Below, piece after piece: positions 11,135-43,104 of a stretch of 64,000 nucleotides of DNA. Numbering within the stretch: the first letter of the stretch is position 1; the number at the start of each line of letters is the position of its first letter. The notes beneath the pieces are model-generated. The model searched no databases and had not been told where the DNA came from. It worked only from the letters and a program-made list of their open reading frames with translations. The position numbers were made by a program, and so were the translations under genes. The DNA is taken from positions 211,334 through 275,333 of the forward strand of contig JAUYOV010000004.1 in the NCBI GenBank assembly GCA_030697795.1. Reading direction: 5' to 3'. The DNA comes from a bacterium (GTDB lineage Bacteria; Patescibacteriota; Minisyncoccia; JACQLN01).

Positions 11135-11145
11135 GTAATACTAAT

Positions 11146-11243
11146 TTACGAATTTATGCGAATGATACGAATACTATATGCGAATATTTTTATTCGTGCA
11201 TCTATTTGTATAATTCGTATGCATTCGTATATTGGCATTGCAC
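11146..11243 (+). repeat. About 95-bp repeat Y, copy 1 (TACGAAT heptamer array; between the leuS stop and the tsaC start)
   Basis: Homologous to 16283-16367. Four ACGAAT/GCGAAT direct repeats at about 10-bp spacing, then inverted ATTCGTAT copies. Confidence 0.8.
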
Positions 11244-13729
11244 TATACCACGAAGTTAATAAACCTGTCTTTAATAAAAATAACTTTTTTTACGGGGGAG
11301 ACAAGATACTTAGAAATATTTTTGTTGTTTTTAGCCGCCGTTTCAACCTCTTTTTGAGAAGAATCTGCTGGCATTTTAATAACCGCGCGCATTCTGGCAT
11401 TAACCTGCACTACTATGTCTACCTCCTTGTCTTTGACCAGTTTAACGTCAAACTTTGGCCAAGGCGCTATATGAATAGATTTTTTATTCTTTAAAATTTC
11501 TCTAAATATTTCCTCGCTCATATGTGGTGCAAAAGGCGCTAAAATCTTAGCAAAAATTTCTAGTTCGCTTTTGCCAACAGATTCTATATTGGCTTCAAAT
11601 TCATTTAACAAAACCATTAAAGCCGAGACCGAAGTATTGTAATTTAAATTTTCTAAATCTTCTGTAACTTTTTTGATTGTCTTGTGTATCTTTGTTTGTA
11701 TATTGGAATTTGCTTGCCCTTCCGAAGCTCTGAAAGAGCGAAGGAGGGTGATTTGTTTAGAAATTAGAAATTGGGAATTAGAAATTTTCCAGATTCTTTC
11801 CAAGAATCTGATTATCCCTTTTATACCACCATCTCTAAAATCACCACCTTGATCGAACGGACCCAAAAACATTAAGTACATTCTTAAAACATCGGCGCCG
11901 TAATTTTTAATATATTCGTCGGGATTAACCACATTCCCCTTGGATTTTGACATTTTAGCGCCATCTTTTATTAACAAACCGTGGGCACGGAATTTTTTAA
12001 ATGGTTCGTCAAAATTAGTTAAACGCAGGTCCTTGAATACCATTGCTAAAAAACGCACATACAATAAATGCAAAACAGAATGCTCCGCGCCACCAATATA
12101 CATATCTACCGGGCACCATTTTTTAGTTACAGATTGATCCCAAGCGTATTTCTTTTCTTTAACAGAAGCATAACGCAAATAATACCAAGCCGAATCTAAG
12201 AAAGTATCGGAAACATCGGTCTCGCGTCTCGCCATACCTTCGCATTTAGGGCATTTAACTTTATAAAATTTTTCATCGGCCGCTAAAGGCGACTGGCTCG
12301 TACCAGTTGGCCTAAAGTTTTTTATGTAAGGCAATCTAACCGGTAAATCTTTTTCGGGCACCACAACCCAACCTGGATTTTCCAACTCTCCCAAATTAAA
12401 TTCTCCCTTATTTTTGAGATTTGATTTTTGAGATTTGATTTTTTCTGCGCAGTTTTCACAGAAAACAAGCGGTATAGGCGCACCCCAATAACGCTGTCTG
12501 GAAATTAGCCAGTCACGAAGCCGGAATTGAATTGTTTTTTTACCTCCACTCTTTTTTATTCCTTCTTCAATAGAGACTAAAGGTGCGCTACTCACTGGTA
12601 ATTTGAATTTTTGGGCAAATTCTAAATCACGCTCATCGTGCGCTGGAACACCCATAACTGCGCCTGTGCCGTAACCTGCTAAAACATAATCCGAAATCCA
12701 AACCGGAACTTTTTCGTTGTTGGCTGGGTTAATGGCCGAGATACCAGAAAAAACTCCTGTTTTTTCTGGACCCCGACCCTCATGAGGCGTCGGGGTTATA
12801 TTATTTTTTATATACTCCCTGACCTCATTCGGCGCTTGCCAGCCGATATCTAACCAAGACTTTGCTTTCTCGGGCGAAATTGCAATAAACGTTACACCAA
12901 AAACTGTATCTGGGCGTGTAGTAAAAACTTCCAAATACGCCGATTCACGCTGATCTGACGCAGATTTACGCAGAAAAATTCCGCGTTGATCCGCGTTAAT
13001 TTCCGCGTTGATCCGCGTAAGGGGAAATTTTATAGAAGCACCTTCCGATTTACCTATCCAATTTTTTTGAGCTATTTTTACTTTTTCGCTCCAATCTATT
13101 TTATCTAAACCTTTTAAAAGTTTATCGGCGTATTTAGTTATTCTAAAAAACCATTGCTCTAATTCTTTTTTAATAACTTTAGTATTACATCTTTCACATT
13201 CACCACTTATTACTTGTTCATCGGCTAAAACTGTTAAACACGAAGGGCACCAATTAACCGCCGATTTTTTGCGGTAAGCCAAACCATTTTTATATAACTG
13301 AATAAAAATCCATTGAGTCCATTTATAATATTCAGGGTCGTAAGTTTCTAGTTTTTCGTGCCAAGCAAAACCATTGCCTATCATTTGCAGTTGGCGATAA
13401 AAATTTTTCTCGGAAACTCTGGCTTGATCCATCGGGTGTTCGCCAATTTTTAAAGCGTAGTTTTCGGAATGTATGCCAAAACCATCTAAACCAATCGGCT
13501 CAAAAACGTTATAGCCCTGCATTCTTTTAAATCGCCCGTAAATATCGCTCCCCACAAAAGCGTACACATTACCCACGTGTAAGCCTTCAGCTGAAGGATA
13601 TGGAAACATCATTAGGTTATAGAAAGGATTCTTAGCGTTTTTAAGATCCGGTTCGTAAACCTTCTCGGCCAGCCATTTTTTGCGCCATTTAGATTCTACT
13701 CTCTTGTGGTTGTATTTAGCCATTTGCAT
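11243..13729 (-). CDS. leuS: Leucyl-tRNA synthetase, carrying several low-complexity or repeat-derived in-frame insertions
   Basis: HIGH-type motif HVGNVYAF; KMSKS; editing-domain TTRPDT. Inserts at about 11717-11750, 12410-12450 and 12979-13023. Confidence 0.9.
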   Translation of the reverse strand: MQMAKYNHKRVESKWRKKWLAEKVYEPDLKNAKNPFYNLMMFPYPSAEGLHVGNVYAFVGSDIYGRFKRMQGYNVFEPIGLDGFGIHSENYALKIGEHPMDQARVSEKNFYRQLQMIGNGFAWHEKLETYDPEYYKWTQWIFIQLYKNGLAYRKKSAVNWCPSCLTVLADEQVISGECERCNTKVIKKELEQWFFRITKYADKLLKGLDKIDWSEKVKIAQKNWIGKSEGASIKFPLTRINAEINADQRGIFLRKSASDQRESAYLEVFTTRPDTVFGVTFIAISPEKAKSWLDIGWQAPNEVREYIKNNITPTPHEGRGPEKTGVFSGISAINPANNEKVPVWISDYVLAGYGTGAVMGVPAHDERDLEFAQKFKLPVSSAPLVSIEEGIKKSGGKKTIQFRLRDWLISRQRYWGAPIPLVFCENCAEKIKSQKSNLKNKGEFNLGELENPGWVVVPEKDLPVRLPYIKNFRPTGTSQSPLAADEKFYKVKCPKCEGMARRETDVSDTFLDSAWYYLRYASVKEKKYAWDQSVTKKWCPVDMYIGGAEHSVLHLLYVRFLAMVFKDLRLTNFDEPFKKFRAHGLLIKDGAKMSKSKGNVVNPDEYIKNYGADVLRMYLMFLGPFDQGGDFRDGGIKGIIRFLERIWKISNSQFLISKQITLLRSFRASEGQANSNIQTKIHKTIKKVTEDLENLNYNTSVSALMVLLNEFEANIESVGKSELEIFAKILAPFAPHMSEEIFREILKNKKSIHIAPWPKFDVKLVKDKEVDIVVQVNARMRAVIKMPADSSQKEVETAAKNNKNISKYLVSPVKKVIFIKDRFINFVV
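11717..11750. repeat. Small palindromic repeat family (core CGAAGCTYTRAGCGAAGGAGG), copy in frame inside leuS
   Basis: Shares the core with copies at 10430-10470, 14263-14293, 35714-35770, 41711-41776 and 53781-53812. Confidence 0.7.
12979..13023. repeat. ATCCGCG-unit GC-rich repeat (TTCCGCGTTGATCCGCGTTAATTTCCGCGTTGATCCGCG) in frame inside leuS
   Basis: Related copies lie in ileS (34941-35009) and polX (48637-48676). All three are in minus-strand genes. Confidence 0.7.
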
Positions 13730-14690: not shown

Positions 14691-14707
14691 GTTTTTGAGA
14701 AAAAAAT

Positions 14708-14785
14708 ATCATTCCGAACAGCATTATGGAGAAGACTAATTTATAAATAAAGAGGCTCCATATCGTCTGTGAGGAATGATATTTT
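14708..14785 (+). repeat. About 78-bp structured repeat X, copy 1 (upstream of tatD)
   Basis: About 90% identical to 29077-29157. Nested inverted repeats (TCATTCC/GGAATGA; ATGGAG/CTCCAT). Confidence 0.8.
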
Positions 14786-14787
14786 TA

Positions 14788-16269
14788 CTAGTTTAATCTA
14801 GGAAACAAATTCTCGCCTTTCTTAAAGTTTATTGCGGATTCTGTAAACCAGATTTGTTTTCTAATTTTTTCGCCTGTTTCTGGTAAAAATGGTTCAACCA
14901 AATTTAGTATAACACCTAGCAAGTAGCCAGAATTAGCCATAACTTTCCTAAGATTTTCAGTTGAAACCACGTTTGACGTGGCGTCTTTAATTTCCCAAGG
15001 TTTTTTATCGTTAATATATTTATCGGCAAAAGAAACCAAACCCCAAACATTTATTAAAGCTTCGTGTAATTTAATTTCGTCTAAAGAAGATTCATATGCT
15101 TTATAAAAATCGTTGCAAGCTTTTTTAACTTCTGGTTCTATATCCGTAGCAAAATCAAACTTTACCGGGTTTATTTTTTCGCCCAAAGTAACTGTGCGCG
15201 CTACCAAATTTCCTAAACCATTAGCTAAGTCTGCGGAATATCTATCTTCAAACTTTCTTAAACTAAAATCTCCGTCATCGTAAGAAGGAATTTCTCGTAA
15301 AAGATAGTAACGTAACGCATCTGTGCCATATTTTTGAACCAGTGGCACAGGATCCACAATATTACCCAAACTTTTAGACATCTTTTGCCCTTCCACCGAA
15401 ATAAAACCATGAACAAAAATAGCTTGGGGTAATGGCAAACTAGCCGATAAAAGTATACCCGGCCAAATAGCCGCATGAAAACGTAAAATATCTTTGCCTA
15501 CAACTTGAAGATCGGCTGGCCAAAGTTTTTTAAATTGCTCGGTTTCATCGCCATAGCCAATAGCTGTAATGTAATTAGCTAAAGCATCACACCAGACGTA
15601 TATAACTTGGTCGGGATCGCCAGGCACCGGTACGCCCCACGGCAAATCTTTTTTAGGCCTAGAAAAGCTAACATCCTCTAAACCAGATTCTATAAAAGAT
15701 AAAATTTCATTTTTACGAGATTCGGGAATTATTTTTAATTCGTCATTTTTAATTTTAGAAGCAATCTGGCTTTGATATTTTGAAAGCCTAAAAAACCAGT
15801 TTTCTTGTTCTACTGTTTCTGGTGCTTTTTGGTGATCGGGGCATTTACCATCCACCAAATCTTTTTCTGTTTTAAAAGATTCGCAACCCACGCAATAAAG
15901 CCCGTTGTATTTTTTCTTATAGATATCACCGGCTTCCGAAAGTTCCTGCCATAATTTTTGAACACCTGGCCAATGAACTTCTTGATCGGTTGTTCTAATA
16001 AACCCATCCCAAGAAAGATTTAAAACATTTTTTAACTGTTTAAAATATTCTGCGTTTTCGTTTACAAATTCCTGTGCATTTTTATTCTCTCTTTCGGCTG
16101 CGCGAAAAATCTTAACACCGTGTTCGTCGGTACCCGTTAAAAAGAAAACTTCATCACCTTTTATTCTGTGATAACGCGCCAAAACATCCGCTTGAATCTT
16201 TTCTAAAGCGTGTCCAATGTGCGGTTTCGCATTAACATAATCAATGGCGGTTGTAATATAAAACTTCAT
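14788..16269 (-). CDS. metG: Methionyl-tRNA synthetase (short form, no C-terminal tRNA-binding domain)
   Basis: HIGH motif PHIGHALE and KMSKS; Met-RS catalytic core. 493 aa. Confidence 0.9.
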   Translation of the reverse strand: MKFYITTAIDYVNAKPHIGHALEKIQADVLARYHRIKGDEVFFLTGTDEHGVKIFRAAERENKNAQEFVNENAEYFKQLKNVLNLSWDGFIRTTDQEVHWPGVQKLWQELSEAGDIYKKKYNGLYCVGCESFKTEKDLVDGKCPDHQKAPETVEQENWFFRLSKYQSQIASKIKNDELKIIPESRKNEILSFIESGLEDVSFSRPKKDLPWGVPVPGDPDQVIYVWCDALANYITAIGYGDETEQFKKLWPADLQVVGKDILRFHAAIWPGILLSASLPLPQAIFVHGFISVEGQKMSKSLGNIVDPVPLVQKYGTDALRYYLLREIPSYDDGDFSLRKFEDRYSADLANGLGNLVARTVTLGEKINPVKFDFATDIEPEVKKACNDFYKAYESSLDEIKLHEALINVWGLVSFADKYINDKKPWEIKDATSNVVSTENLRKVMANSGYLLGVILNLVEPFLPETGEKIRKQIWFTESAINFKKGENLFPRLN

Positions 16270-18712: not shown

Positions 18713-19621
18713 TTAAAAATAGAATAGCAGTTTTTGTTTTATATTAAAACCCTTACAATGCCTCAAAACTCCCAAATACGAATCTACATTTTTCTCATTA
18801 ATCTTTCTTAACATCCTTCTTTTTGTTTTAGTCCTCAAAACCCTATGGTTAGGCAAAACCACATAACCCAGAAAATCTATACCCTGCCTGTATTTACGAA
18901 TAATTATTTTGTCTGGATGCAAAAATAGCTTTAGATTCTCAAAAAGAAAAGTATTAATTTTGTAAGACAGATTTAATAAATAATATTTATTACTTCCTAA
19001 AATAACAAAATCATCGCAGTAACGAATATAATACTTTTCTTTTAAGTTATGTTTAACAAATTGGTCTAATTCGTTTAAATAAATATTGGCAAATAACTGG
19101 CTGGTTACATTGCCTAAGGGTAACCCTTTGTTAAAACTACCTATTATTTTCTCAACCAACCATACAGCATTATCGTCTTTGATCTTTAGTTGAATCAATT
19201 TAATTAGAGCATCTTGATCTATGGAATCAAAAAACTTTTTAATATCACACTTTAAAGCAAAAATAGTTTGGCTATTGTTTTGGCTTAACTTACGACAAAA
19301 AGTTTCTAGTCTTGTTACTGCTTTGTGTGTTCCTTTGCCTATTCGGCAAGAATAAGAATCAAACATAAAATGTCTATCGAATATTGGATATAAAACTCTA
19401 AAAACAGCTTGATGTAAAACCCTGTCGCGTACACAAGCTTTATGGATATGACGCAATTTTGGGTCGGTAACATAAAAAGGAATATACTGGCTGTGTTTAT
19501 ATGTTTTATTTTTTAATTCGCTATGCAGTTGAAACAGATTATCTTCTAGGTTAAAATCAAATTCTTGAACATCCAACCTTTTTCTTTTGCCTTTTTTAAA
19601 TTCGCGCCAAGCTAAAAACAA
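18713..19621 (-). CDS. DGR reverse transcriptase (RT1)
   Basis: Matches DGR RTs along its length. N-terminal LAWREFKKGKR. Motif 4 is LGNVTSQLFANIYL, the I/LGxxxSQ DGR hallmark. YxDD motif is YCDD. Confidence 0.85.
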   Translation of the reverse strand: MFLAWREFKKGKRKRLDVQEFDFNLEDNLFQLHSELKNKTYKHSQYIPFYVTDPKLRHIHKACVRDRVLHQAVFRVLYPIFDRHFMFDSYSCRIGKGTHKAVTRLETFCRKLSQNNSQTIFALKCDIKKFFDSIDQDALIKLIQLKIKDDNAVWLVEKIIGSFNKGLPLGNVTSQLFANIYLNELDQFVKHNLKEKYYIRYCDDFVILGSNKYYLLNLSYKINTFLFENLKLFLHPDKIIIRKYRQGIDFLGYVVLPNHRVLRTKTKRRMLRKINEKNVDSYLGVLRHCKGFNIKQKLLFYF

Positions 19622-20024
19622 GTTTTCTAAGCTAATAATTTTTTTAAAAATATTATGGAAAATTTCTCCATTAAAGCCCCCCCCCTACGGAGTTGAAATA
19701 TCGCTGGTGCATAAAATTTGTGAATTGTATAAATTATTCCACGAATGTTTGAAAATATTTCCCAAGACGGAACGATTTACTTTGGGCCAAAAAATTGAGA
19801 ACACCATTCTAGAAATTTTAGAACTAATCCTTTCAGCCAGTTACCAATCAAAATATGGAAAAAGTGAAACCTTAATAAGAGGTAGCGATAAAAATGACCT
19901 TCTAAAGTATCTTATCCGTCTTGCTCACGATACCAAATCAATCAATATAAAAAAATATCTATTAGTTGAGGAAAAGGTTTTAGAAATAGGTCGTATGTTA
20001 GGTGGCTGGATAAAATCCAACTAA
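19587..20024 (+). CDS. avd: Avd-like accessory variability determinant (four-helix-bundle family); true start probably near 19709-19718
   Basis: Paralogous to the two other Avd-like ORFs and shares the C-terminal IGRMLGGWI motif. Alignment to those paralogs places the N-terminus near VHKICELYK. Confidence 0.7.
   Translation: MPFLNSRQAKNKFSKLIIFLKILWKISPLKPPPYGVEISLVHKICELYKLFHECLKIFPKTERFTLGQKIENTILEILELILSASYQSKYGKSETLIRGSDKNDLLKYLIRLAHDTKSINIKKYLLVEEKVLEIGRMLGGWIKSN
19677..19686. repeat. Homopolymer C10 in the divergent RT1/avd1 promoter region
   Basis: 10 consecutive C, 56 bp upstream of the RT1 start codon and about 25-30 bp upstream of the likely avd1 start. Confidence 0.9.
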
Positions 20025-20055
20025 ACTTTGCAAAGAGCGCCTAAAAAATAAGGCG
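20024..20055 (+). terminator. Intrinsic terminator after avd1 (AGAGCGCC-loop-GGCGCTCT followed by a T-run)
   Basis: 9-bp GC stem and U-tract. Lies between avd1 and TR1. Confidence 0.5.
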
Positions 20056-20180
20056 CTCTTTTGTTTGGAAACTACCAGAGGACGACCAGCTATGTTGTCG
20101 TTGCGATTGCTAGACCAATTGTAGTTGACGTTGGCTAGACCACCGTTCTCACGGTTACCACCGTAAAGCCGGCTGGAGTC
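20054..20180 (-). repeat. DGR template repeat TR1 (AAC-rich on the minus strand)
   Basis: About 127 nt, nearly identical to 20491-20618. All 8 differences are A in TR1 versus C/T/G in VR1. TR1 encodes GGNRENGGLANVNYNWSSNRNDNIAGRPLV. Confidence 0.85.
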
Positions 20181-20431
20181 CTCAAATTTTTGCTTTAAAC
20201 CGTCCATAATCACCGAAAATCTAAATATAAATTTTCTGAAATCCGCATCCCACGGATAGTTTTTTACTCGGCAACTCTTAAATAATCTAAGAATACCCGA
20301 TCTAGTTTAAAGCAAGGAGTTTCGTTATTTCCTGTTTTAAACAGGAGAGTAAATGCGAGAATAAACCTTAGTCTATTCTTCATTAGCTTTACTCAAGGAA
20401 AATTTTACCAAATTTGTGAAAATAAAAAAAT

Positions 20432-20451
20432 CCCCCAACTTACGTTGGGGG
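20432..20451 (-). promoter_or_regulatory. GC-rich hairpin (CCCCCAAC-GTAA-GTTGGGGG) about 40 bp downstream of VR1
   Basis: 8-bp stem with a GNRA-type loop on the target strand. Confidence 0.4.
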
Positions 20452-20486
20452 AAAATCCAAGGGCCAAAGCCCAAGGGGAAAAGAAC

Positions 20487-21320
20487 CTACTTTGCGAAAC
20501 TCACCAGAGGACGACCAGCTATGCTGCCGCTGCGATTGCTAGACCAATCGTAGTTGACGTAGGCTAGACCACCGTACTCACGGTGACCACCGTAAAGCCG
20601 GCTGGAGTCCTCAAACTTATCGTCGAACCACTCCCACATATTGAATCGGCCGCGATTGCTGTCGTAGAGATTGCCAATGGCATTGGACTCTACAGCCCGC
20701 TCCAACCGAACCTGTTCGGGTTTGAAACCGAATGCTTCGGCGATAGCAGGACAAACCACATCTCGCCATTCATCGTTGGTAATGGCAAAACGAGAGCCCG
20801 AAGGAGTATTATCGTGTTTGCCGATTTTTCCTTCTTCGCGCAATTTACTGATGATTAGCGCGAGAGGGTCATTGGAAAATACTTGCGTGCCGTCGGTGTA
20901 ATTCACACCGACGGTGAAATCAGCTAGATACCAACCTCTGTAGAGTTTGGCACTGTCGGGGGCGAGCTTGCCTTCCCCGATTTTCTGGTAGAACCATTTT
21001 TCAGGTTTTACCCAATTCTTGAGCTTGCAATTCTCGCCAATTCCTTCCATCGGCAGATATACCGGCCTGAAGTCGAACCCAGCCCACTTGGCCAAGTTCT
21101 CTTCGGTGAATTCGGGAGGCAGAGGATCAACATCCACACGGAAGAACTTTTGAAGCTTCTTCTGTGTTGCCTCCACTAAAGCTACCAGCAAAGACACTAT
21201 GCGATGTTCGTTGAAAGCTTTAACACTTTCCAAAGTGTGACTGCCGTCATCTATCTGACGGAAAAAATCTTTGAGCACGCCGGACCACGCCGACATCTCA
21301 CCGACTGGGGCATTAGCCAT
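20487..21320 (-). CDS. DGR target protein 1 (FGE/C-type-lectin-like C-terminal variable domain); GC-rich
   Basis: VR1 lies at the C-terminus. The pattern WEWFDD...RLYGG...GRPLV resembles FGE-type CLec folds. Strong SD AGGAGA upstream. Confidence 0.75.
   Translation of the reverse strand: MANAPVGEMSAWSGVLKDFFRQIDDGSHTLESVKAFNEHRIVSLLVALVEATQKKLQKFFRVDVDPLPPEFTEENLAKWAGFDFRPVYLPMEGIGENCKLKNWVKPEKWFYQKIGEGKLAPDSAKLYRGWYLADFTVGVNYTDGTQVFSNDPLALIISKLREEGKIGKHDNTPSGSRFAITNDEWRDVVCPAIAEAFGFKPEQVRLERAVESNAIGNLYDSNRGRFNMWEWFDDKFEDSSRLYGGHREYGGLAYVNYDWSSNRSGSIAGRPLVSFAK
20491..20618 (-). repeat. DGR variable repeat VR1 (3-prime end of target 1)
   Basis: Encodes GGHREYGGLAYVNYDWSSNRSGSIAGRPLV at the C-terminus of the 277-aa ORF. 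Confidence 0.85.
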
Positions 21321-21478
21321 AGCCAGTTTCTCCTGTGATTAAAAGGTTTTAAGAGTACAATTTAGGCTCTATTTGAGCTTGATAACATAATAGCAGTTAT
21401 TGTATCTTGTGTCAAATTGACTTGGTTGTAAACAAACTAAGAATATACTACTATTCAGTTACTAGTCCTTAGGGTTCC

Positions 21479-21511
21479 GAGATCCCGCTCCGTTATGGAG
21501 CGGGATCGAGT
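21479..21511 (-). terminator. Hairpin terminator downstream of glyQS (GATCCCGCTCC-loop-GGAGCGGGATC)
   Basis: 11-bp GC stem 20 bp after the glyQS stop. Confidence 0.5.
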
Positions 21512-21530: not shown

Positions 21531-22931
21531 TTAACTATAAATTTTGTCTGAAAGATAATTTTGTAATTCCGAAATTTTTATTCTTTCTTGTGTAGTGGTA
21601 TCCCTATCCCGAACCGTTACTGTTTCATCTTCCAAAGTTTGAAAATCTACAGTTATACAGTAAGGTGTACCAATTTCATCTTGGCTGTAATAACGTTTAC
21701 CAACATTACCGCGATCATCCCAAGCTACCACAAATTCTTTTTTCAAACCCACATAAACTTTTCTAGCCGCCTCCACAAGTTCTGGTTTATTTTTCATTAA
21801 AGGAAACACCGCAACTTTGTAAGGCGCTATTTTTGGGCTTAATTTTAAAACAGTGCGAGATGAATCAGTATCGTCGTAAGCGCTACATAGAATAGCAAGT
21901 AACGATCTATCTACTCCCCACGTTGGCTCTATAACATGTGGCCAATATTCTTCGCCGCTAGATGTACCATCTCCTTGTTCACGATATTTTAAATTTTGCC
22001 CAGAGCCTTTTTCATGATTTTTTAAATCAAAATCGGTGCGGTAAGCCAAACCATAAAGTTCTTTTCGGCCAAAAGGGAAATCAAATTCAAAATCTATGGT
22101 GCGTTTAGAATAATGAGCCCTGTCTTCGGCTGGAATTTCTATTTCGTGCACGTGTTTTAAATCTATGCCGACATCTTCCATCCAACCTAGCATTTCTTTC
22201 CGCCAATGTTCAAAATTTTCTTGCCAAGTATCTTTTTTAATAAAATATTCAATTTCCATTTGTTCAAATTCGCGCGTTCTAAAAATAAAGTTCCCTGGTG
22301 TAATTTCATTTCTAAAAGCTTTACCAATTTGAGCAATACCAAACGGAATTGTTTTACGGGTTGTATCTAAAACATTTTTAAAGTTAACGAACATGGCTTG
22401 CGCCGTTTCGGGCCGAAAGTAAACCGTATTAGAGCTATCTTCGGCTGGACCAAGAAAAGTTTTTAACATCAAATTAAATTGCTTAGGTTCAGCAAGATTT
22501 CCTCCACAGTTTGAACATTTATTTTTGTTTTGTAATTTGGTATTTGTTTCGGATTTCGAATTTCGTGCTTCGGATTTATCATGTTCATCTACCCTAAACC
22601 TTGAGTGACACTTAACACATTCTGCTAATGGATCGTTAAAATTTGAAAGATGCCCACTAGCCTCCCAAACTTTCGGATTCATTATTAAAGCAGCATCTAA
22701 ACCAACCATATCGTCGCGACCATGCACAAATTTTTTCCACCACAACTGTTTTATATTATTTTTTAATTCCACGCCTAAAGGCCCGTAATCCCAGCTATTA
22801 GCCAAACCACCATAAATTTCGCTCCCAGGATAAACAAATCCTCGGCGCTTACATAAAGATACAATTTTATCTATAGAATCTACCATAAGAATACTATAAC
22901 AATTTGATAGCTTGTGAGCAAAAAAAATCAC
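21531..22931 (-). CDS. glyQS: Glycyl-tRNA synthetase (dimeric GlyQS type) with Cys-rich insertion
   Basis: Class II motifs and the GlyRS N-terminus GFVYPGSEIYGGLANSWDYGPLG. Insertion containing CVKCH...CSNCGG. Confidence 0.9.
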   Translation of the reverse strand: MIFFAHKLSNCYSILMVDSIDKIVSLCKRRGFVYPGSEIYGGLANSWDYGPLGVELKNNIKQLWWKKFVHGRDDMVGLDAALIMNPKVWEASGHLSNFNDPLAECVKCHSRFRVDEHDKSEARNSKSETNTKLQNKNKCSNCGGNLAEPKQFNLMLKTFLGPAEDSSNTVYFRPETAQAMFVNFKNVLDTTRKTIPFGIAQIGKAFRNEITPGNFIFRTREFEQMEIEYFIKKDTWQENFEHWRKEMLGWMEDVGIDLKHVHEIEIPAEDRAHYSKRTIDFEFDFPFGRKELYGLAYRTDFDLKNHEKGSGQNLKYREQGDGTSSGEEYWPHVIEPTWGVDRSLLAILCSAYDDTDSSRTVLKLSPKIAPYKVAVFPLMKNKPELVEAARKVYVGLKKEFVVAWDDRGNVGKRYYSQDEIGTPYCITVDFQTLEDETVTVRDRDTTTQERIKISELQNYLSDKIYS

Positions 22932-22953
22932 CCGATATTCTTTCGGGTGATAG

Positions 22954-25542: not shown

Positions 25543-25870
25543 ATAGATGAATTGTATCGTAACAAGAGAAAAATATCACGCTAAAGGAATGTTATAATAT
25601 TCATATCCTGCTAATGCAGTTTGAACCATGGTTCAAACTCGCGGGATATCTCATTTTTGCCTTTCCGCCAAAGCTTTACGGGCGGTAAAAGAATCGCCAG
25701 AGTATTAAACCTTACGGGGTTTAATAGCGTGCGAACTAAAATGGAGATGGAACTTCTTGCTTGTTTTTGGTGGAGATTCCGCCAAAGGCGGATGCTCCCA
25801 AGTAAAATTCAGGAAAGAAGAAACATAAATTTCATACTTTCCGGTGATATTGGATGGAAACAAGCAAAAT

Positions 25871-25992
25871 CTTGACTCCGATGGCAACCGCGTTAGCGTC
25901 GGCAACTTCGATCAGAACGGCCTCAACATCAACAACAACTGGGACGATAACCGCAACGACAATCTTGGCCTGGCCTCCTCTCGAACTTCCAT
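25871..25992 (+). repeat. DGR template repeat TR2 (AAC-rich on the plus strand, non-coding location)
   Basis: Matches the reverse complement of 27629-27749. Encodes VGNFDQNGLNINNNWDDNRNDNLGLASSR, versus VR2 VGDFDRFGLYFDYDHDDNRYDSLGLASSR. Confidence 0.75.
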
Positions 25993-26002
25993 CTGCAACC
26001 AT

Positions 26003-26026
26003 AAAACCCTCCTTTAGGAGGGTTTT
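26003..26026. terminator. Bidirectional hairpin AAAACCCTCC-TTTA-GGAGGGTTTT between TR2 and the avd2 stop
   Basis: 10-bp stem flanked by A/T runs on both sides. Confidence 0.5.
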
Positions 26027-26037
26027 ATGGTTTTGCA

Positions 26038-26388
26038 TCAATGAGTTTTTGACGAGCGGATCCAACCGCCTAACATCCGCCCTATCTCATTAACCATTTC
26101 CTGAATTAAAATATATTTTTTATTCTCTAAAACACCAATATCTTTAGCCAAGCGGACATAAACCCTAAAAAGATTGAGCTTAACACTAACTCTTTCTAAG
26201 TATGTTACTCTTTTGAGCTTATCCAAACTGCTTATTTCCAACAAATAGCCCAATATCTCAATCAAAATCAAATTGCATTTCTCGCCTAAAGAATACTTGT
26301 CTTGCTTGGGAAAACCTTTCAAACAAGCATAAAATTCTTTATATAAATCGTAGGTTTTTTTAAATAGCGGAATATCAAAACTATCCAT
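26038..26388 (-). CDS. avd: Avd-like accessory variability determinant (avd2)
   Basis: 116 aa. C-terminus EIGRMLGGWIRS. Paralog of avd1 and avd3. Start diverges from RT2 with a 2-nt overlap. Confidence 0.75.
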   Translation of the reverse strand: MDSFDIPLFKKTYDLYKEFYACLKGFPKQDKYSLGEKCNLILIEILGYLLEISSLDKLKRVTYLERVSVKLNLFRVYVRLAKDIGVLENKKYILIQEMVNEIGRMLGGWIRSSKTH

Positions 26389-27382
26389 GAAAATTTATCA
26401 AAATATATACGAACAAATAATCTCTGCCGAAAATTTGTTTCTAGCTTGGGCAGAATTCAAAAAAGATAAACAAAAAAGAAAAGACGTTATGCAATTTGAA
26501 TACAGGCTGGAAAAAAATATTTTAGGCTTGTGCCAAGAACTAAAAAATCAAACATATAAGCATAGTCCTTATAGTAATTTTTATATAACCGACCCCAAAC
26601 CCAGGCACATTCACAAAGCATTGGTTAGAGACAGAGTGGTGCACCATTCAGTTTTTAATATCCTTAATCCTGTTTTTGAAAAAACTTTTATCTTTAATTC
26701 TTATTCCTGCAGAAAAAACAAAGGCACTCACAAGGGCATAAACCAATTACACAAAATTTTAAGAAAAATAAGCCAAAACAATCATAAACCATGCTTTATA
26801 TTAAAATGCGATATTAAAAAATTCTTTCAATCAGTTAATCACGGTATTTTGTTAAATATTATTGATCGAAAAATATACGATGAAAAAGCATTGGCCTTAA
26901 TTAAAGAAATTGTAGAGAGTTTTAAACCCGGGTTGCCCATAGGCAACCTAACCAGCCAATTATTTGCCAATATTTATTTAAATAATCTGGACCAATATAT
27001 AAAGCACCATTTAAAAATTCCCTTTTATATAAGATATACCGATGATTTTGTGATTATTTATAACGATTTGGAAAAACTAAAACAGTGGCTTAGCCAGATT
27101 CAGGAATTTTTAAATGTAAACCTAAAACTACGTCTGCATCCCAATAAAGTTATTCTGCGCAAATATCATCAAGGAACTGATTTTTTGGGCTATGTGCAAT
27201 TTCCCCATTATTGTATTTTGCGCCCTAGAACCGAAAGAAGAATAATGAAAAGGATACAGCAGGGAGTTTCTGAACAATCGCTAAATTCATATCTAGGTGT
27301 GCTTTCTCATGCTAATAGTTATAAATTATCGGAAAAAATCAAAAACTTGTTTTGGTTTAATAAAAAAGAAAACCCGTCTTGA
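26387..27382 (+). CDS. DGR reverse transcriptase (RT2)
   Basis: IGNLTSQLFANIYLN (SQ motif); IRYTDDFV. Matches RT1 and RT3 along its length. Confidence 0.85.
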   Translation: MKIYQNIYEQIISAENLFLAWAEFKKDKQKRKDVMQFEYRLEKNILGLCQELKNQTYKHSPYSNFYITDPKPRHIHKALVRDRVVHHSVFNILNPVFEKTFIFNSYSCRKNKGTHKGINQLHKILRKISQNNHKPCFILKCDIKKFFQSVNHGILLNIIDRKIYDEKALALIKEIVESFKPGLPIGNLTSQLFANIYLNNLDQYIKHHLKIPFYIRYTDDFVIIYNDLEKLKQWLSQIQEFLNVNLKLRLHPNKVILRKYHQGTDFLGYVQFPHYCILRPRTERRIMKRIQQGVSEQSLNSYLGVLSHANSYKLSEKIKNLFWFNKKENPS

Positions 27383-27427: not shown

Positions 27428-27463
27428 TTGGTTGGTTGGTTGGTTGGTTGGTTGGTTGGTTGG
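27428..27463. repeat. Microsatellite (TTGG)9
   Basis: Perfect tetranucleotide tandem repeat between the RT2 stop and the target 2 stop. Confidence 0.9.
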
Positions 27464-27567
27464 AATTGGAACTCTCTTTCATTATAAATTTAGTATAACA
27501 TAATTGGTTATAAAAAATTGAACCCTCGGATTTTCCGAAGGTTCAAGAAACAAAATTCAAAAGCCTG

Positions 27568-27597
27568 CCCCGCACCGAGCTACGCTCTGGTGCGGGG
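27568..27597 (-). promoter_or_regulatory. GC-rich hairpin (CCCCGCACC...GGTGCGGGG) about 30 bp downstream of VR2
   Basis: 9-bp perfect GC stem. Position is analogous to the hairpins after VR1 and VR3. Confidence 0.4.
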
Positions 27598-27622
27598 ATT
27601 CAATACTTCAAAACTCAACTCC

Positions 27623-28396
27623 CTATTTGGAACTTCGAGAGGAGGCCAGGCCAAGACTGTCGTAGCGGTTATCGTCATGGTCGTAGTCGAAGTAGAGGCC
27701 GAACCGATCGAAATCGCCGACGCCAACGCGGCTGCCATCGGAGTCAAGAGACGAAGTTCGGACATAGGTGTGTTCGAACAGTCGCTCACCAGTAGCCATG
27801 AAGTGGCCAATGATGGCGTAGACCACCACTTGCGCCTTCGGTGTTTCCTCGTCTTTGCCGAGTAGCTTCTGCTGATCATCCCAAGTCTTGGACGTGGAAT
27901 CCATAACCGGAGTTTTGCGGACGAGATGCCATCCGACTTCGCCCTTGTATTTGGCAAAAGTCTCCTTGTTGTACCAATCCTGTTCATAAAACAGGCGCTG
28001 ACCGTTGTTAGCGACCTTGCCTCGGATGTCCAGGATTGAGAGAGGAAAAATGGCGACAAGGGTATGCGTGTCTCTTGCCTCGGTAAGCTCGGCTTCAGTG
28101 AACGGAACTTCGGCCAAAGCCGAGATCTGCGCTCGCGTGGGCTTTACACCGAGATACTGAATCGCTTCCTCTACCCCAAACATGTTGCGCCCCATTATCT
28201 GATGGGCCGTTTTCTGCGAAGTGGTGGCTTCATAGCCGCCGTTGCTGATAAGCCTAACCACTTTCGTGGCAAGGTCATTGCCCTTGGAGCCTATGACTCT
28301 CTGGGCAAGTTCATCGTTGAGGCCAGCGGCCTCAAGTTTTAGGAGCACTTCATGCTCTTTGTGCACCGACAGAGTACGGCTCACGATGGTTTCCAT
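27623..28396 (-). CDS. DGR target protein 2 (C-terminal variable domain); GC-rich
   Basis: 257 aa. VR2 at the C-terminus. Strong SD GGAGGT upstream. Confidence 0.75.
   Translation of the reverse strand: METIVSRTLSVHKEHEVLLKLEAAGLNDELAQRVIGSKGNDLATKVVRLISNGGYEATTSQKTAHQIMGRNMFGVEEAIQYLGVKPTRAQISALAEVPFTEAELTEARDTHTLVAIFPLSILDIRGKVANNGQRLFYEQDWYNKETFAKYKGEVGWHLVRKTPVMDSTSKTWDDQQKLLGKDEETPKAQVVVYAIIGHFMATGERLFEHTYVRTSSLDSDGSRVGVGDFDRFGLYFDYDHDDNRYDSLGLASSRSSK
27629..27749 (-). repeat. DGR variable repeat VR2 (3-prime end of target 2)
   Basis: See TR2. About 13 mismatches at TR adenines. In addition, one codon differs at all three positions (TGG in TR, CAT in VR) and there is one C/T difference. 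Confidence 0.75.
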
Positions 28397-29038: not shown

Positions 29039-29076
29039 AAACGGTAAAAGTATAACATGTATCCTAAATTAAAATT

Positions 29077-29157
29077 ATCATCCCGAACAGCATTATGGAG
29101 AAGACTATCTTATATAAATAAAGAGGCTCCATATCGTCTGTGAGGGGTGATAATTTT
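29077..29157 (+). repeat. About 80-bp structured repeat X, copy 2 (upstream of recO-like, divergent from the GT39 gene)
   Basis: See copy 1. The outer stem shows a compensatory change (TT/AA to CC/GG). Confidence 0.8.
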
Positions 29158-29211
29158 TCTTAAAAACTTGCTGGCGAGCGAAAGAGCAATTTTTAAGCTA
29201 AACTATTAAAC

Positions 29212-34370: not shown

Positions 34371-37300
34371 TTAAATATTTTTAATCCCCACCCCGATTTC
34401 AAATCCTTCATAATTCCAAACTTTGTGGACCAAGAAATTTTCGTGTTCGGTTATGCCAAAGTTAATTTGTGTAGAACGAGTTTCGGCTTTTATAACTTGT
34501 TCCCAACGAGTTAATAATTCTTTAAAGTTGGCGTTTTGGTTAAGTTCGTAATGTAAAATTATTTTATCTTCTGGTGTTAATTTGGCTTCTTTTCGCATTT
34601 CGTTTATATTGCGAATCATTTCACGAACCATTCCTTCTTCCTTAAGCTCCGCCGTAAGTTCGGTATCCAAATTAACGTTGTTCTTTTCTATTTTTCTATC
34701 ACTTAAAACTTTTTTAACATTGAGTTCTTCGGCAACTATATATAGAACATCGCCAATTAAATTGTAATCAGCCGGTGAAACATATAAAGCATTTAAGGGC
34801 TGGCGTACGCGCAAACCCGCTTGAGCGCGCTCGGCAAGCCCCAGCGCCACAATTTCGCGGGCTCTATCCATGACTTTCGTAATATCGGAAGCCTTAACAG
34901 TTTTGGTATTTGGCCATTTTTCCAAATGAACCGACTCCCCAAACGCCGATAAACGCCGATTTTTATCCGCGCTGATCCGCGCTGATCCTTGCGTTAATCC
35001 GCGTAATTCTTGATAGAGCCATTCCGATATAAACGGCGCAAATGGCCCCATAACAACAGATACGCGTTTTAAAACTTCGGTTAAAGTATTTTGAGCCGAT
35101 AGTTTTTCGGCATCTATATTTTGCTTTTGGAACTTACGGCGGCTACGGCGTATATACCAATTAGAAAGTTCGTCTATAAAAGCTTCTATAGCACGCGAAG
35201 CGGAAGTAATGTCGTAGCTTTCTAAAAATTTATTTACTTCGAACTCCAACATTTCTGTTTTAATCAAAACCCATTTATCTAAAATATCTGTTTTGGCTAG
35301 TAAAGATTTCGGAGCTTCGGTGTAATAAGTTTCTAAAAACAAAAACGAATTAATTAAAGTATCGGCGAATCTACGTTTTTTAGATTCTATATCGCGCAAA
35401 CTAAAAAGTTTATTATCGCCCGGCGCGTTTACAGTGTAAAAATACCAACGCATCATATCGAACCCAACTTTCTCACCCACCAGCCAAGGGTCTACAATGT
35501 TCCCTTTAGACTTCGACATCTTCTCGCCCTTTTCATCTAGAACATGGTTTAAACTAATTACATTCTTATACGGATTACCTTCGCCTAAAGCGGTAGATAC
35601 CGCCATTAAAGTATAAAACCAGCCCCGGGTTTGATCGATCGCTTCGCAAATATAATCTGCTGGAAAATGGTCTTTCGGTAAATTTTTATTTTTTATATTT
35701 AAATTTTTCTTGTCCTTCGAAGCCTTGCTGTGCCACTCCGTAGCTTTGAGCGAAGGGTGGGCGTAGGAGGAAACTTGAGACGCCCACGGCATTGCACCCG
35801 AATCAAACCAAACATCGGCCAAGTCTTTTATACGTTCCATCTTCGAGGAACACATAGAACACTTAAGGAACACGCTATCGGCATAGGGGCGATGCAGGTT
35901 TAAATTGCCTTCTTCATCGTGGGGCCAGTTATTTGTTTCTACAAAAGTAAATTCGGCAGGGGACAAAGCTAGTTTAGAATCTTTAACTGCGTTTTGATAC
36001 AAAAGTTTTGTTTCGTCTTCGCCATAAATTCCATTAGATAATTGCATTAAAAATAAGGGGTCCATATGGCTTACCACAACCACCTTCTTGCCAGCGTGTT
36101 CTCTAGAAACATCCATCATAAATTCGCGCACCCGTTTGGCCACATCCAACCACGATTCGCCTGCCGGCGCGGGGCGAATAAATTTATCTTTAAAAGAATT
36201 AAAATATTTTTCATATTCCAAAAATGGCCCGCCATTAAACTCGCCAGTGTTTATTTCGCGTAAGCGTTCATCAAAAATTACTTCTTTTATTTTAAGTTCG
36301 TCCGCCAATATTTGAGCCGTCTCTCTGGCTCTTAATAGATCCGATGAATATATGGCCGATACCTTATTAGCCGCCAAAAGTTTTTTTATATTTTGGGCGG
36401 ATGCCTCTGCTTGTTTTCTACCCTTTTCGGTTAGGGGGTTTAAAATCTTTTCAGGGTAAGCACTGCAAATACCTTTAGCGTTAGATTCTGCTTCGCCATG
36501 GCGCATTAAAATTAAAGTGGTTGGAGAATCTAGGCGGTGTTCGTTAAGCTCGGCTAAAGAACCAATAACAGTTTTGTGTTCGCATTTGGTGCATGCCCAA
36601 ATTGGCAAGGGTGTTCCCCAATAGCGTTCGCGGCTTATAGCCCAGTCTTTAACCTCGCGTAACCATTCGCCAAACCGGCCATCTTTAATGTGTTCGGGCA
36701 CCCAATTAACTTTTTCGTTATTTTTAATTAGATCGTTTCTTAACGCCGACATTTTTATAAACCAACTTTCTTGGGCGTAATATAGTAAGGGCGATTTACA
36801 CCTCCAGCAAAAAGGATATTCGTGCTTATAGCTTGACTCATTAAACAGCAAATTTTGTTTTTTTAAGTAAAACAAAATCGTTTTTTCGGTTATGGGGTCT
36901 TTTTTGTTTTCACTAACAACAGCAAGCCCGCCTACTATAGGAACAGATTTTACAAAAACTCCTTCACGATTAACCGTGTGGAATTTAGGCAAATTTAATT
37001 TGGAACCGAGTTCAAAATCGTCGACGCCATACATTACGGCTGTATGCACAATGCCCGTACCATCTGCGGTAGTTACAAAATCGGCTTCGTAAACTCTGTA
37101 CGAATTTTCGGATTCCAACTCTTTAACAGCAAAAAGTGGTTCGTAAGAAAGTCTAGTAAGCTCGCTAGAAGTTAGTTCTTTATTTATTTTGTATTCTACT
37201 TTAGCCTCGCCAAAAACTTTAGGCGCTAAATCGCGAGCCAAAATATATTTTTCACCATTAGCTTCGACTTCTACATAGGTAACTTTCGGGCCAACAGCTA

Positions 37301-38022: not shown

Positions 38023-39018
38023 TTAAGCTAGCGGAAAATAAGACATTAGTAAAATATCGGTAATTCCATAAGTATTCCCATGCTTCAACAACCCCAAATA
38101 AGAACTTACCGTTTCTGGCTCTGGGTTCTCTCCAATTCTTTTCATCATCCGTTTTTTAGTAACTGTTCTTAAAACTTTATGATCTGTAAAATGAACCCAA
38201 CCCAAAAAATCCGCACCCGAAGCTAGAGTTTTGATAAAAACTTTGTCGGGGTGGAGTGTGAGTTTGAGATTTTTAATTAAAAATTCTTGAATCTTTGGGA
38301 TTAAGTTCTCTAACCATTCTTTGTCTTGCGATAAAACCACAAAATCATCGGGGTATCTAATGTAATACTTAACTTTTAATTTATGTTTAACAAACTGGTC
38401 AAACTTGTTCATATAGATATTCACCAAAAGCTGGGAGGTTAAATTGCCCAAGGGCAAACCAATATTGGGTTTTGTTTTAAAACTGGACACAACATTATTG
38501 AGTAACCAAATAATATTTTTGTCTGGTATATATTCAGTTAGTATCTCTAGCAAAACTTTGTGATGAATACTGGAAAAGAATTTTTTAATGTCGCATTTTA
38601 AGACCCAGCAAGTTTTAGTGTTATTTTGACCAACTTTGTAAGCAAAAGACTGAAAACGATTCAGGGCTTTATGCGTGCCTTTGTTCTTTCGGCAAGAAAA
38701 AGAATCGGCTATGAATGTTTTATCAAAGAAAGGGTAAAGAATATGATAAATTGCGTGGTGAAGTAGCCTATCCCGAACTGTGGCTTTATGTATGTTTCGG
38801 GGTTTGGGGTCGGAAATATTGAAAGCTTGGTAAATGCCATGCCGATAAGTGAAATTGACCAAGTCTTGGTTAAGTTGAAAAATATTATCCATTAAATTAA
38901 AGCCAAATTCCTGCACATCTTTTCTTTTTCTCTTGCCTTTGATAAACTCCTGCCAAGCCAATAACAAATTATCAACGCTAATAACATCTTCAAAACTATG
39001 GATCAATTGAGTTTTCAT
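38023..39018 (-). CDS. DGR reverse transcriptase (RT3)
   Basis: LGNLTSQLLVNIYMN (SQ motif); IRYPDDFV. Paralog of RT1 and RT2. Confidence 0.85.
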   Translation of the reverse strand: MKTQLIHSFEDVISVDNLLLAWQEFIKGKRKRKDVQEFGFNLMDNIFQLNQDLVNFTYRHGIYQAFNISDPKPRNIHKATVRDRLLHHAIYHILYPFFDKTFIADSFSCRKNKGTHKALNRFQSFAYKVGQNNTKTCWVLKCDIKKFFSSIHHKVLLEILTEYIPDKNIIWLLNNVVSSFKTKPNIGLPLGNLTSQLLVNIYMNKFDQFVKHKLKVKYYIRYPDDFVVLSQDKEWLENLIPKIQEFLIKNLKLTLHPDKVFIKTLASGADFLGWVHFTDHKVLRTVTKKRMMKRIGENPEPETVSSYLGLLKHGNTYGITDILLMSYFPLA

Positions 39019-39071: not shown

Positions 39072-39443
39072 ATGAAAAATCTCTATTTTATCTGGTTTCA
39101 ATACTACCAGATTTTACCCAAAGCGCATCGCTACACGCTTGGCCGCAGAATTGACTCTATGTTTATTGAAATAGTTGAAGCGATAGTTACAGCGTCTTTT
39201 CTAACGCAAGAAAAGAAGCTCCCGTTTGTTCAGCACGCCCTTCGCAAAACAGACACGCTTAAAATCCTATTACAAGTATTATGGGAAACTAAATCTTTAG
39301 ATGATAAAAAATATATAGCCGTATCAAAACCTTTAGAAGAAATCGGCAAAATGCTGGGTGGCTGGAATGGCCAGCTTCAAAAACCCCTCGACATAGCTCG
39401 GGATAAAGAAAACTCTCCCCACAAAAAGCAGAGAGAGAAATAA
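39072..39443 (+). CDS. avd: Avd-like accessory variability determinant (avd3)
   Basis: 123 aa. C-terminal EEIGKMLGGW motif. Confidence 0.75.
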   Translation: MKNLYFIWFQYYQILPKAHRYTLGRRIDSMFIEIVEAIVTASFLTQEKKLPFVQHALRKTDTLKILLQVLWETKSLDDKKYIAVSKPLEEIGKMLGGWNGQLQKPLDIARDKENSPHKKQREK

Positions 39444-39447
39444 AGAA

Positions 39448-39573
39448 AGTTGCGAGCACGGCCGAAGGATTGTTGGCATTCCAGTCGTTCTCAAGCCAGT
39501 TGTAGTTCCAGTCCCACTCACCATCGTTCCAGTAGAGATAAAGAACGTTGCGGTTGCCATTCGGACTGCGAAT
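39448..39573 (-). repeat. DGR template repeat TR3
   Basis: Encodes RSPNGNRNVLYLYWNDGEWDWNYNWLENDWNANNPSAVLA. Begins 5 nt after the avd3 stop. Confidence 0.85.
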
Positions 39574-39824
39574 ATATTGTATAAAGCGCCACCTATGCCA
39601 CCACCCCTTGAATACTCTTAGGGTTGTATCGTATTTGGTATCTAAAATACCCTAGCGCTATATACCGAGTATCTTCATTTTTTTAAGCTTCCATAAACCA
39701 CCCTATTCCCAACCGTAATCGGGAATACTCTCGATTTATGGTTACTGGCTTCGGTAGCAGGCAACCTTAATCGCCCGCGTATTCACCTAATACCATTTGC
39801 ATAATAACATTTTGCAAAAGAAAA

Positions 39825-39851
39825 TTCCCTACGACATTACGTCGTAGGGAA
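39825..39851 (-). promoter_or_regulatory. Hairpin TTCCCTACGAC-loop-GTCGTAGGGAA about 54 bp downstream of VR3
   Basis: 11-bp stem. Confidence 0.4.
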
Positions 39852-39902
39852 TTTAGAGTACAAAGTCCAAAGGATCTAAAAGTTCTAGAATTCTAAGGAC
39901 TA

Positions 39903-40754: not shown

Positions 40755-41195
40755 ATGGAGGCCAAAACAAACAAAAAGGCGTTTTTTAATTACGAAATCC
40801 TAGAAAAGTTCGAGGCGGGTTTGGTGTTGCTTGGAGGCGAAGTTAAATCTATAAGAAATAATCATTACAGTTTACAAGGCGCATACATAACAGTAGAAGA
40901 TGAAGAGGCTTGGTTAGTGAAAGCCATGATCGCCCCTTACCAGCCTAAAAATATGAGCGGGCAGTATAACCCCGAACGCAAGCGCAAACTTTTACTTAAC
41001 AAAAAAGAACTCCAGTATTTACAAGGAAAAACAAAGGAAAAAGGCTTGACTATTGTGCCTCTAAAAGTTTACAATAAGCACGGTCAAATCAAGTTAGAAA
41101 TTGCTTTAGCCAAAGGTAAAAGCAAGGGCGATAAGAGAGAAGTTCTTAAAAAACGTATCGCCGACCGAGATATCGCCAGAGAACTTAAATCTTGA
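40755..41195 (+). CDS. smpB: SsrA-binding protein
   Basis: Matches SmpB along its length (FFNYEILEKFEAGLVLLGGEVKSIR...). Confidence 0.9.
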   Translation: MEAKTNKKAFFNYEILEKFEAGLVLLGGEVKSIRNNHYSLQGAYITVEDEEAWLVKAMIAPYQPKNMSGQYNPERKRKLLLNKKELQYLQGKTKEKGLTIVPLKVYNKHGQIKLEIALAKGKSKGDKREVLKKRIADRDIARELKS

Positions 41196-43088: not shown

Positions 43089-43104
43089 TATAACTTAAAT
43101 AAAA

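Follow-up and report, generated by a model that had tools for sequence, protein, structure and literature searches.

Terminator-like hairpins and a CTTG octamer array in the flanks of DGR targets of a Patescibacteria/CPR clade

To our knowledge, the only defined cis elements of DGRs, the IMH and the GRNA hairpin, both originate from a single phage. A very large part of the natural DGRs is found in CPR bacteria. Guo et al. (2011, PMC3240598) describe the Bordetella-type hairpin as a GC stem of 7–10 bp with a 4-nt GRNA loop, located 4–34 bp from the VR, and found that in BPP-1 both the size and the sequence of the loop are critical. In the BPP-1 sequence the region reads TAG-CGGGGCC-GAAA-GGCCCCG-CCAAGGCAACCG-ATG(avd). 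The hairpin lies 4 bp from the VR and has no T-tract, and since the avd start codon follows 12 nt past the stem, this arrangement suggests read-through into avd. A reconstitution published in 2026 (PMC12875486) reports that the BPP-1 stem-loop boosts retrohoming, but is not strictly required, and that targets co-directional with replication are favoured for retrohoming. The same study states as unresolved how the DGR cDNA finds and replaces the VR while sparing the TR. Wu et al. (2018, PMC5758913) report that just 34% of DGRs are followed by GC inverted repeats, and that terminators follow a minority of them.

Here, a stretch of 64 kb of bacterial DNA (the window) is compared with these systems. 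The original prediction for this DNA was that a strong GC hairpin of one and the same type follows each of its three VRs, that these hairpins resemble the Bordetella element and argue for functional cassettes, and that they may also act as terminators.

Three DGR cassettes and their hairpins

The window contains three complete DGR cassettes of a Patescibacteria/CPR clade, and the relatives of their reverse transcriptases (RTs) all come from Patescibacteria/CPR genomes, the best match being 81% identical. All three contain an RVT_1 reverse transcriptase (E = 2e-20 to 6e-26), a bAvd gene (E = 5e-11 to 5e-21), and a TR and a VR that differ at TR adenines, the VR lying at the 3' end of an ORF; by these features all three belong to the DGRs. 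Cassette 1 consists of an RT at 18713–19621 (−), avd at about 19690–20024 (+; with a start at 19587 as the wider limit), TR1 at 20074–20189 (−) and target gene 1 at 20487–21320 (−), the 3' end of which carries VR1 (20503–20618, −), the partner of TR1. In cassette 2, TR2 (25870–25991, +), avd (26038–26388, −) and RT (26387–27382, +) are followed by target gene 2 (27623–28396, −), and VR2 at its 3' end (27628–27749, −) pairs with TR2 while being inverted with respect to TR2 and RT2. Cassette 3 has its RT at 38023–39018 (−), avd at 39072–39443 (+), TR3 at 39447–39572 (−) and target gene 3 at 39903–40547 (−), with VR3, which pairs with TR3, at the 3' end of the gene (39905–40030, −). Just upstream of this cassette there is an SmpB gene (40755–41195, +) and then a tmRNA (41262–41623, +; Rfam, 105 bits), which is not reported by ARAGORN. 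A Pfam search with the three target proteins gave no family, and an Rfam search with the DGR cassettes gave no match.

Within the repeats, mismatches between TR and VR fall on TR adenines in 8/8 cases for DGR1, 24/25 for DGR3 and 13/18 for DGR2. The lower share in DGR2 is caused by a cluster of non-adenine mismatches, where TR2 (25945–25953) has AACTGGGAC and VR2 (27666–27674) has GACCATGAC. It is these adenine-specific differences that argue for functional cassettes; the hairpins, from which the original prediction had drawn the same conclusion, do not. In all three cassettes avd is found between TR and RT on the opposite strand, divergent from RT and convergent with TR, so that the TR RNA cannot be co-transcribed with avd, unlike in BPP-1. 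GC skew is negative on the + strand over the whole window (1–64000), and the − strand carries nearly all genes. The three targets, including target 2 with its TR2 and RT2 on the + strand, are all co-directional with both the skew and the gene-orientation bias, and are thereby placed co-directional with the presumed replication.

Three GC hairpins are indeed present on the sense (−) strand of the targets, 30–50 nt past each VR. The first, HP1 (20432–20451, −; extended 20431–20452), reads CCCCCAAC-GTAA-GTTGGGGG with a stem of 8–9 bp including 6 GC pairs. It is located 34 nt past the stop codon of target 1, and its tail TTTTTTTATTTT (20419–20430, −) contains the tract TTTTTTT. HP3 (39825–39851, −; extended 39822–39854) reads TTCCCTACGAC-GTAAT-GTCGTAGGGAA, with 11–14 bp and 6 GC pairs, and its tail is T-rich as well (TTTTCTTTTG when counted from the 11-bp core, with the T-tract TTTTCTTTT). 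HP2 (27568–27597, −; CCCCGCACC...GGTGCGGGG) is a GC hairpin of 9+4 bp with a GTA triloop, since what looks like a 12-nt loop pairs with itself (GAGC-GTA-GCTC), giving 13 bp with one bulged A. There is no T-tract adjoining HP2 (tail CAGGCTTTTG), and it is embedded in the repeat array that is described below. In cassette 2, a second hairpin of canonical form begins 21 nt beyond HP2 (27518–27546, −; with its tail 27512–27546) and reads TTGAACCTTCGG-AAA-TCCGAGGGTTCAA followed by TTTTTT; this is the likely terminator of target 2. The combination of a GC stem-loop and a sense T-tract, which defines the intrinsic-terminator type, is thus found in HP1, in HP3 and at 27518–27546, and not in HP2.

Counted from the end of the VR homology, HP1 and HP3 are both 50 nt away and HP2 about 30 nt (25–30). 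As would be expected of terminators, the hairpins are close to the stop codons of co-oriented genes (25–48 nt in the window). The original prediction had asked for secondary-structure prediction, and the hairpins stand up to it: as DNA, HP1, HP2 and HP3 fold with −10.0, −15.2 and −14.5 kcal/mol, the z-scores of the flanks are −3.3, −5.9 and −5.9, and 0/200 shuffles fold as well. There are just 21 perfect-stem GC hairpins in the 64 kb (at least 7 bp, at least 5 GC), so the chance of finding one is ~0.02 per 60-nt stretch, and that of finding three in three is ~8e-6. One of the strong hairpins elsewhere in the window is at 21481–21507, with an 11-bp GC stem (GATCCCGCTCC-ATAAC-GGAGCGGGATC) and no T-tract; it lies past a class II aminoacyl-tRNA synthetase gene (21531–22931) and directly upstream of the promoter of target 1 (TTGACA-17-TATTAT, 21387–21415).

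The loops of the three hairpins, GTAA (20440–20443), GTA (27581–27583) and GTAAT (39836–39840), all start with GTA on the sense strand. A GTA-initial loop occurs in 0/18 other strong hairpins of the window, and in the relatives from other genomes the loops are unrelated. This shared start is not predicted if the hairpins are purely terminators. A counterpart of HP2 was sought in the nearest relative of cassette 2, L053 (RT 83% and target 71% identical), where none was found, only the terminator. An extra VR-proximal GC hairpin similar to HP2 is present in about 12–15 of 66 flanks, with varying loops and positions. Judged from these comparisons, HP2 appears to be an optional, lineage-specific extra GC hairpin, of a kind that ~15–20% of the relatives have. 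The three hairpins of the window are therefore not one class: HP1 and HP3 are of the terminator type of the clade, and HP2 is different. The claim that the same element type stands at all three targets has to be given up, because HP2 has no adjacent T-tract, sits inside the array, is absent from L053 and is followed by a separate terminator of canonical form.

Cassette 2 has a further repeat, a (GGTT)n microsatellite at 27428–27470, directly past the RT2 stop codon. Two relatives with the same inverted layout (L015 and L057) carry (TGGA)n at the corresponding place. Read on the opposite strand, 27428–27470 gives a short ORF, MKESSNSNQPTNQPT..., preceded by a TGTTATACT box.

Hairpins after DGR targets in related loci

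For a comparison across the family, TR/VR pairs were located in 61 related loci, and the best hairpin was scored after every ORF; a hairpin counts as strong if it reaches −10 kcal/mol or stronger and lies no more than 120 nt from the stop codon. Of the 60 targets, 30 (50%) are followed by a strong hairpin, as compared with 63 of 637 other genes (10%; odds ratio 9, p = 3e-13). For a hairpin with a T-tract the numbers are 32/60 (53%) for targets and 25/637 (4%) for other genes (odds ratio 28, p = 2e-23). Within the window, 3/3 targets have a strong hairpin as compared with 7/47 other genes, and two of these seven adjoin TR1 and TR2. The enrichment also holds when the comparison is limited to genes with a convergent neighbour, or to those followed by a gap of at least 100 nt or of at least 250 nt (odds ratios 6–8, p < 1e-7). 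Equally common hairpins after non-target genes would have made these elements generic; the enrichment shows instead that they are tied to DGR targets.

The position of the hairpin is also similar between loci. The distance from VR to hairpin has a median of 47 nt in the family, with an interquartile range of 38–55. In L003 and L002, which are relatives of cassette 1, it is 48–52 nt, and in L075, a relative of cassette 3, it is 51 nt, as compared with 50 nt in the window. In these closest relatives the position is kept while the stem sequences are unrelated.

Several features of the family hairpins are one-sided with respect to the strand. At least five T in the next 8 nt are found after 82% of the strong target hairpins, but after only 21% of the strong hairpins following other genes. 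A downstream T-tract is present in 85% of the family, an upstream A-tract in 4%. Of the G·U pairs, 54 belong to the sense strand and 6 to the antisense strand. If the hairpin is chosen independently for each strand, the more stable version is that of the sense strand in 49 loci and that of the antisense strand in 10 (p = 7e-9). The stems in the window are pure Watson-Crick and are therefore uninformative on strand selection by themselves; at the level of the family, the hairpin is selected on the sense strand, which is what is expected of a terminator. A position that is kept without the sequence, combined with a signal on the sense strand, has the anatomy of a Rho-independent terminator, and suggests selection for structure. 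The suggestion in the original prediction that the hairpins may also act as terminators is its best-supported part. We know of no verification of intrinsic termination in CPR bacteria. It is worth noting that the sense-strand bias would equally fit a hairpin formed on the single-stranded DNA of the sense strand. The lagging-strand template is reported as the favoured configuration for retrohoming (PMC12875486), and the sense strand here is that strand.

The CTTG octamer array and a putative TR RNA promoter

The spacer between VR and hairpin is itself repetitive. In nearly every locus, it contains tandem units of ~8 nt on the sense strand with a CTTG, CTTTG or CTTAG core, and an anchored profile gives the unit as YYTTGRRN. 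The C-T(2-4)-G motif reaches 2.61 copies per 70 nt past VRs, as compared with 0.36 copies past other genes (p = 1e-27), and at least three copies are found in 56% of VR flanks as compared with 1% of other flanks. On the antisense strand the motif is found 0.21 times per 70 nt. The spacing of the units peaks at 8 nt, and the first 50 nt past the VR have 43 motifs per kb, as compared with 3–9 per kb elsewhere between −300 and +1200. Copy numbers range from 0 to 8; there are fewer than two motifs in 20/66 flanks, and the array is weak in cassette 2.

In cassette 1 the array (20453–20486, −) fills the space from the stop codon to HP1 and reads GTTCTTTT CCCCTTGG GCTTTGG CCCTTGG ATTT. The array of cassette 3 (39855–39902, −), also of CTTG type, reads TCCTTAGA ATTCTAGA ACTTTTAGA TCCTTTGG ACTTTGT ACTCT. 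In cassette 2 the array is split by HP2 into a degenerate proximal part (27598–27622, −; GGAGTTGA GTTTTGA AGTATTGA AT) and a distal part past HP2 (27547–27567, −; CAGG CTTTTGA ATTTTGT TTC), which runs into the TTGAACCTTCGG arm of the terminator. Other periodic repeats of 8–11 nt are present in the window, with the cores ATTAG/CTAAT, TCCGCGT and ATTCGCA, and these have no link to DGRs. Those at 53740–53780, 62763–62803 and about 11140–11240 are intergenic, further ones are at 12958–13020, 34966–35006 and 48636–48676, and the TCCGCGT copies lie inside called ORFs. An intergenic element of ~90 nt occurs twice, at 14702–14789 and 29071–29160 (85–92% identity).

The array keeps with the VR in inverted, remote-target and multi-target layouts. 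It is absent after TRs (0.44 per 70 nt) and absent before 25 non-target terminators (0.32 as compared with 2.1), and on the latter ground we reject the idea that CPR terminators in general carry it upstream. It is limited to loci with an RT at least about 50% identical to RT1. In IMG/VR it was found only in four contigs with RTs 50–54% identical, and it is missing in clades at 41% or below; some of these array-less clades have hairpins at short distance without a T-tract, e.g. CTGCCCC-GTTA-GGGGCAG at 20–23 nt. As a practical example of its use, the array flagged two VRs that had been overlooked by the TR/VR filter (L032 and L055). The array is not described in the DGR target-element literature that was searched, which did not include the study of CPR DGRs by Paul et al. 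(2017, Nat Microbiol).

The array is the only feature of the flank that separates VR from TR. Both have hairpins, and their IMH-like ends are nearly identical, so that the array is the best candidate for a mark of the recipient, a role that the VR may owe to the array and not to the hairpin. A base-pairing guide can be rejected: duplex energies of cognate and non-cognate combinations do not differ, either for pairing of the array with its own VR 3' end (mean z = −0.19, p = 0.83) or with its own TR RNA (p = 0.83), and a complementary CAAG peak was sought across the cassette and not found. Because these pairing tests are negative, the array is probably a protein-binding array. A tentative proposal, which we consider possible but hold with little confidence, is that the array is read by Avd, RT or a host protein, which would steer the cDNA to the VR and not to the TR; the recipient site would then be defined by a new cis element and not by a Bordetella-type hairpin. 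A correspondence of five units to a pentameric Avd was also considered and rejected, as copy numbers from 0 to 8 have no mode at 5.

Downstream of the hairpins, a −10-like hexamer is found within about 40 nt past 51/54 terminators, a count that has no matched control. An upstream TG accompanies 21/51 of these hexamers, where ~6% are expected from base composition, and they are followed by clade-specific conserved motifs, e.g. GGCTAATACAAYCGGT and CTGCTAATGCAGGTGCGGTTACG, which look like conserved 5' motifs of an RNA. In cassette 1 the extended −10-like box TGGTAAAAT (20402–20410, −) lies 21 nt past HP1 and upstream of a GCTAAT(G) element, the putative 5' end of the TR1 RNA. In cassette 3, TGTTATTAT (39801–39809, −) lies 13 nt past HP3 and is followed by GGTATTAGGTGAATAC, the corresponding candidate 5' element of the TR3 RNA. 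Although no target precedes TR2, the same TGnTAnnnT box is present upstream of it (TGTTATAAT, 25590–25598, +), followed by CTGCTAATGCAG (span 25590–25619). A strict sigma-70 scan of the interval from hairpin to TR gave no full promoter, only −10 and extended −10 matches. The array is unlikely to be part of this promoter and was rejected as such, as it accompanies the VR also where the layout is inverted or the target remote, and as the TR2 promoter has neither array nor hairpin upstream.

Each TR in the window is also followed, after 2–12 nt, by a hairpin facing the 3' end of the reversed avd. After TR1 this is AAAGAGCGCCT-loop-AGGCGCTCTTT (20032–20061, −; 12 nt after TR1), after TR2 a hairpin of 16 bp (25997–26032, +), and after TR3 CTCTCTCTGC-TTTTT-GTGGGGAGAG followed by TTTTCTTT (39413–39437, −). 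Such a hairpin accompanies 56% of the TRs in the family, with a median distance of 10.5 nt. One possibility is that it terminates transcription in both directions and serves avd as well; another is that it is a structure at the 3' end of the TR RNA. With a stem-loop on either side of the TR, the TR RNA is predicted to be a separate transcript of roughly 360–430 nt. The ~250 nt that precede each TR resemble a conserved structured RNA with no entry in Rfam.

The proposed flank and its comparison with known systems

Taken together, the parts of the flank adjoin one another in an arrangement that recurs in the family, and we propose, with a probability of about 0.6, that HP1, HP3 and the hairpin at 27518–27546 are Rho-independent terminators of the DGR targets within a conserved flank of this CPR DGR clade. 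The stop codon would be followed by two to eight sense copies of YYTTGRRN, a GC hairpin with T-tract, and an extended −10 promoter, beyond which a separate TR RNA would start with its conserved 5' end and stop at its own hairpin just past the TR. The terminator would end the target mRNA and would at the same time insulate the TR RNA, which would have a defined 5' end and a promoter of its own. In cassette 2 it would instead separate the target from the convergent RT gene. Termination at HP1, HP3 and 27518–27546 is in each case predicted from their form. The stem-loop of the sense strand may also form in single-stranded DNA, and could then aid retrohoming as the one of BPP-1 does.

That the hairpins are mainly Bordetella-type DNA hairpins or cruciforms for recognition of the VR, with the T-tracts being incidental, would account for the strong enrichment after DGR targets and for the fairly tight distance to the VR (interquartile range 38–55 nt). 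It would also agree with the known effect of the BPP-1 stem-loop, which raises the efficiency of retrohoming (PMC3240598; PMC12875486), with the speculation by Guo et al. on terminator-like stem-loops as DGR targets, with the perfect Watson-Crick stems and the common GTA of the loops in the window, and with the direction of the three targets, which agrees with the GC skew and with the orientation of most genes. However, no loop size and no GRNA sequence is kept: 2/48 strong hairpins of the family have GRNA, and loops vary from 3 to 13 nt. Within the window the loops are not GRNA and HP1 and HP3, at 50 nt, are outside the range of 4–34 bp, so none of the three hairpins fits the definition of PMC3240598, and the original prediction fails on this point. 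The sense-specific G·U pairs and T-tracts would not be selected by a two-stranded cruciform, and the BPP-1 hairpin has no T-tract. In addition, the TRs have hairpins too, whereas in BPP-1 a TR without one helps to separate donor from recipient; here, the hairpin alone cannot mark the recipient. On this evidence we regard a mainly Bordetella-type role as unlikely.

Generic host terminators at the ends of transcription units, with no specific link to DGRs, would have the same canonical intrinsic-terminator form, and similar hairpins do follow other genes of the window, e.g. at 22927–22951 and 43097–43134. This is quite improbable given that the enrichment survives the controls for gaps and convergent neighbours, that a hairpin with T-tract follows just 4% of the other genes in these genomes, and that in many CPR lineages the hairpin accompanies the cassette, along with array and promoter. 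The palindromes could also be double-stranded DNA operators, bound by a dimeric regulator of the downstream promoter of the TR RNA; they lie 5–25 nt upstream of the −10-like box, where a −35 element or an operator would be. Nevertheless, stem sequences are unrelated between loci, with no conserved palindromic consensus seen among cassettes of the same Avd/RT subtype, the G·U asymmetry shows that one strand alone is under selection, no hairpin is present upstream of the TR2 promoter, and the hairpins remain next to the VR where the layout is inverted or the target remote, all of which makes operators very hard to believe.

Terminators after DGR targets and stem-loops in DGR flanks are known kinds of element; the unexpected part is the CTTG array. 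With BPP-1 the window shares a GC inverted repeat 3' of VR/IMH and after the stop codon in all three cassettes. HP1, with its stem of 8–9 bp, fits the stem criterion of 7–10 bp and has a 4-nt loop, and HP2 is within the 4–34 bp range; HP2 (9+4 bp with a bulge) and HP3 (11–14 bp) have other stems. The differences are that the loops (GTAA, GTA and GTAAT in the window) are free in length and sequence across the family, that HP1 and HP3 have T-tracts and lie 50 nt away, and that hairpins are also found after TR1, TR2 and TR3. The terminators of Wu et al. (PMC5758913) have the same hairpin and T-tract past the IMH and the stop codon, but in the present clade they are the majority state (53–82%, depending on the criterion), and they are fused to the array upstream and to the TR-RNA promoter downstream. 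In nanoarchaeal DGRs, Paul et al. (2015, PMC4372165) describe hairpins with GRA triloops. As here, these are small GC hairpins with G-N-A triloops near the VR, and comparable triloops are GTA in HP2 and GAA in three related loci (L063, L085 and L021, the last read by eye). The nanoarchaeal hairpins are inside the target ORF and have tightly constrained loops, while the extra hairpins of the CPR clade are optional, outside the ORF and variable. Group IIC introns (PMC3240598) offer another likeness, as the target of a retroelement adjoins a terminator-type stem-loop that may form in single-stranded DNA; the difference is that DGR cDNA replaces the sequence upstream of the hairpin by homology, with no insertion downstream, and nothing in the present analysis points to a reading of the stem by the RT complex. 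For an uncultivated clade, the array offers a concrete element for tests of target recognition, and array and terminator together may serve as a sequence signature for remote DGR targets in metagenomes. Compared with all of these systems, the target flank of these CPR bacteria appears to be built differently, with a hairpin that would be a terminator and would be joined directly to the promoter of an independent TR RNA.
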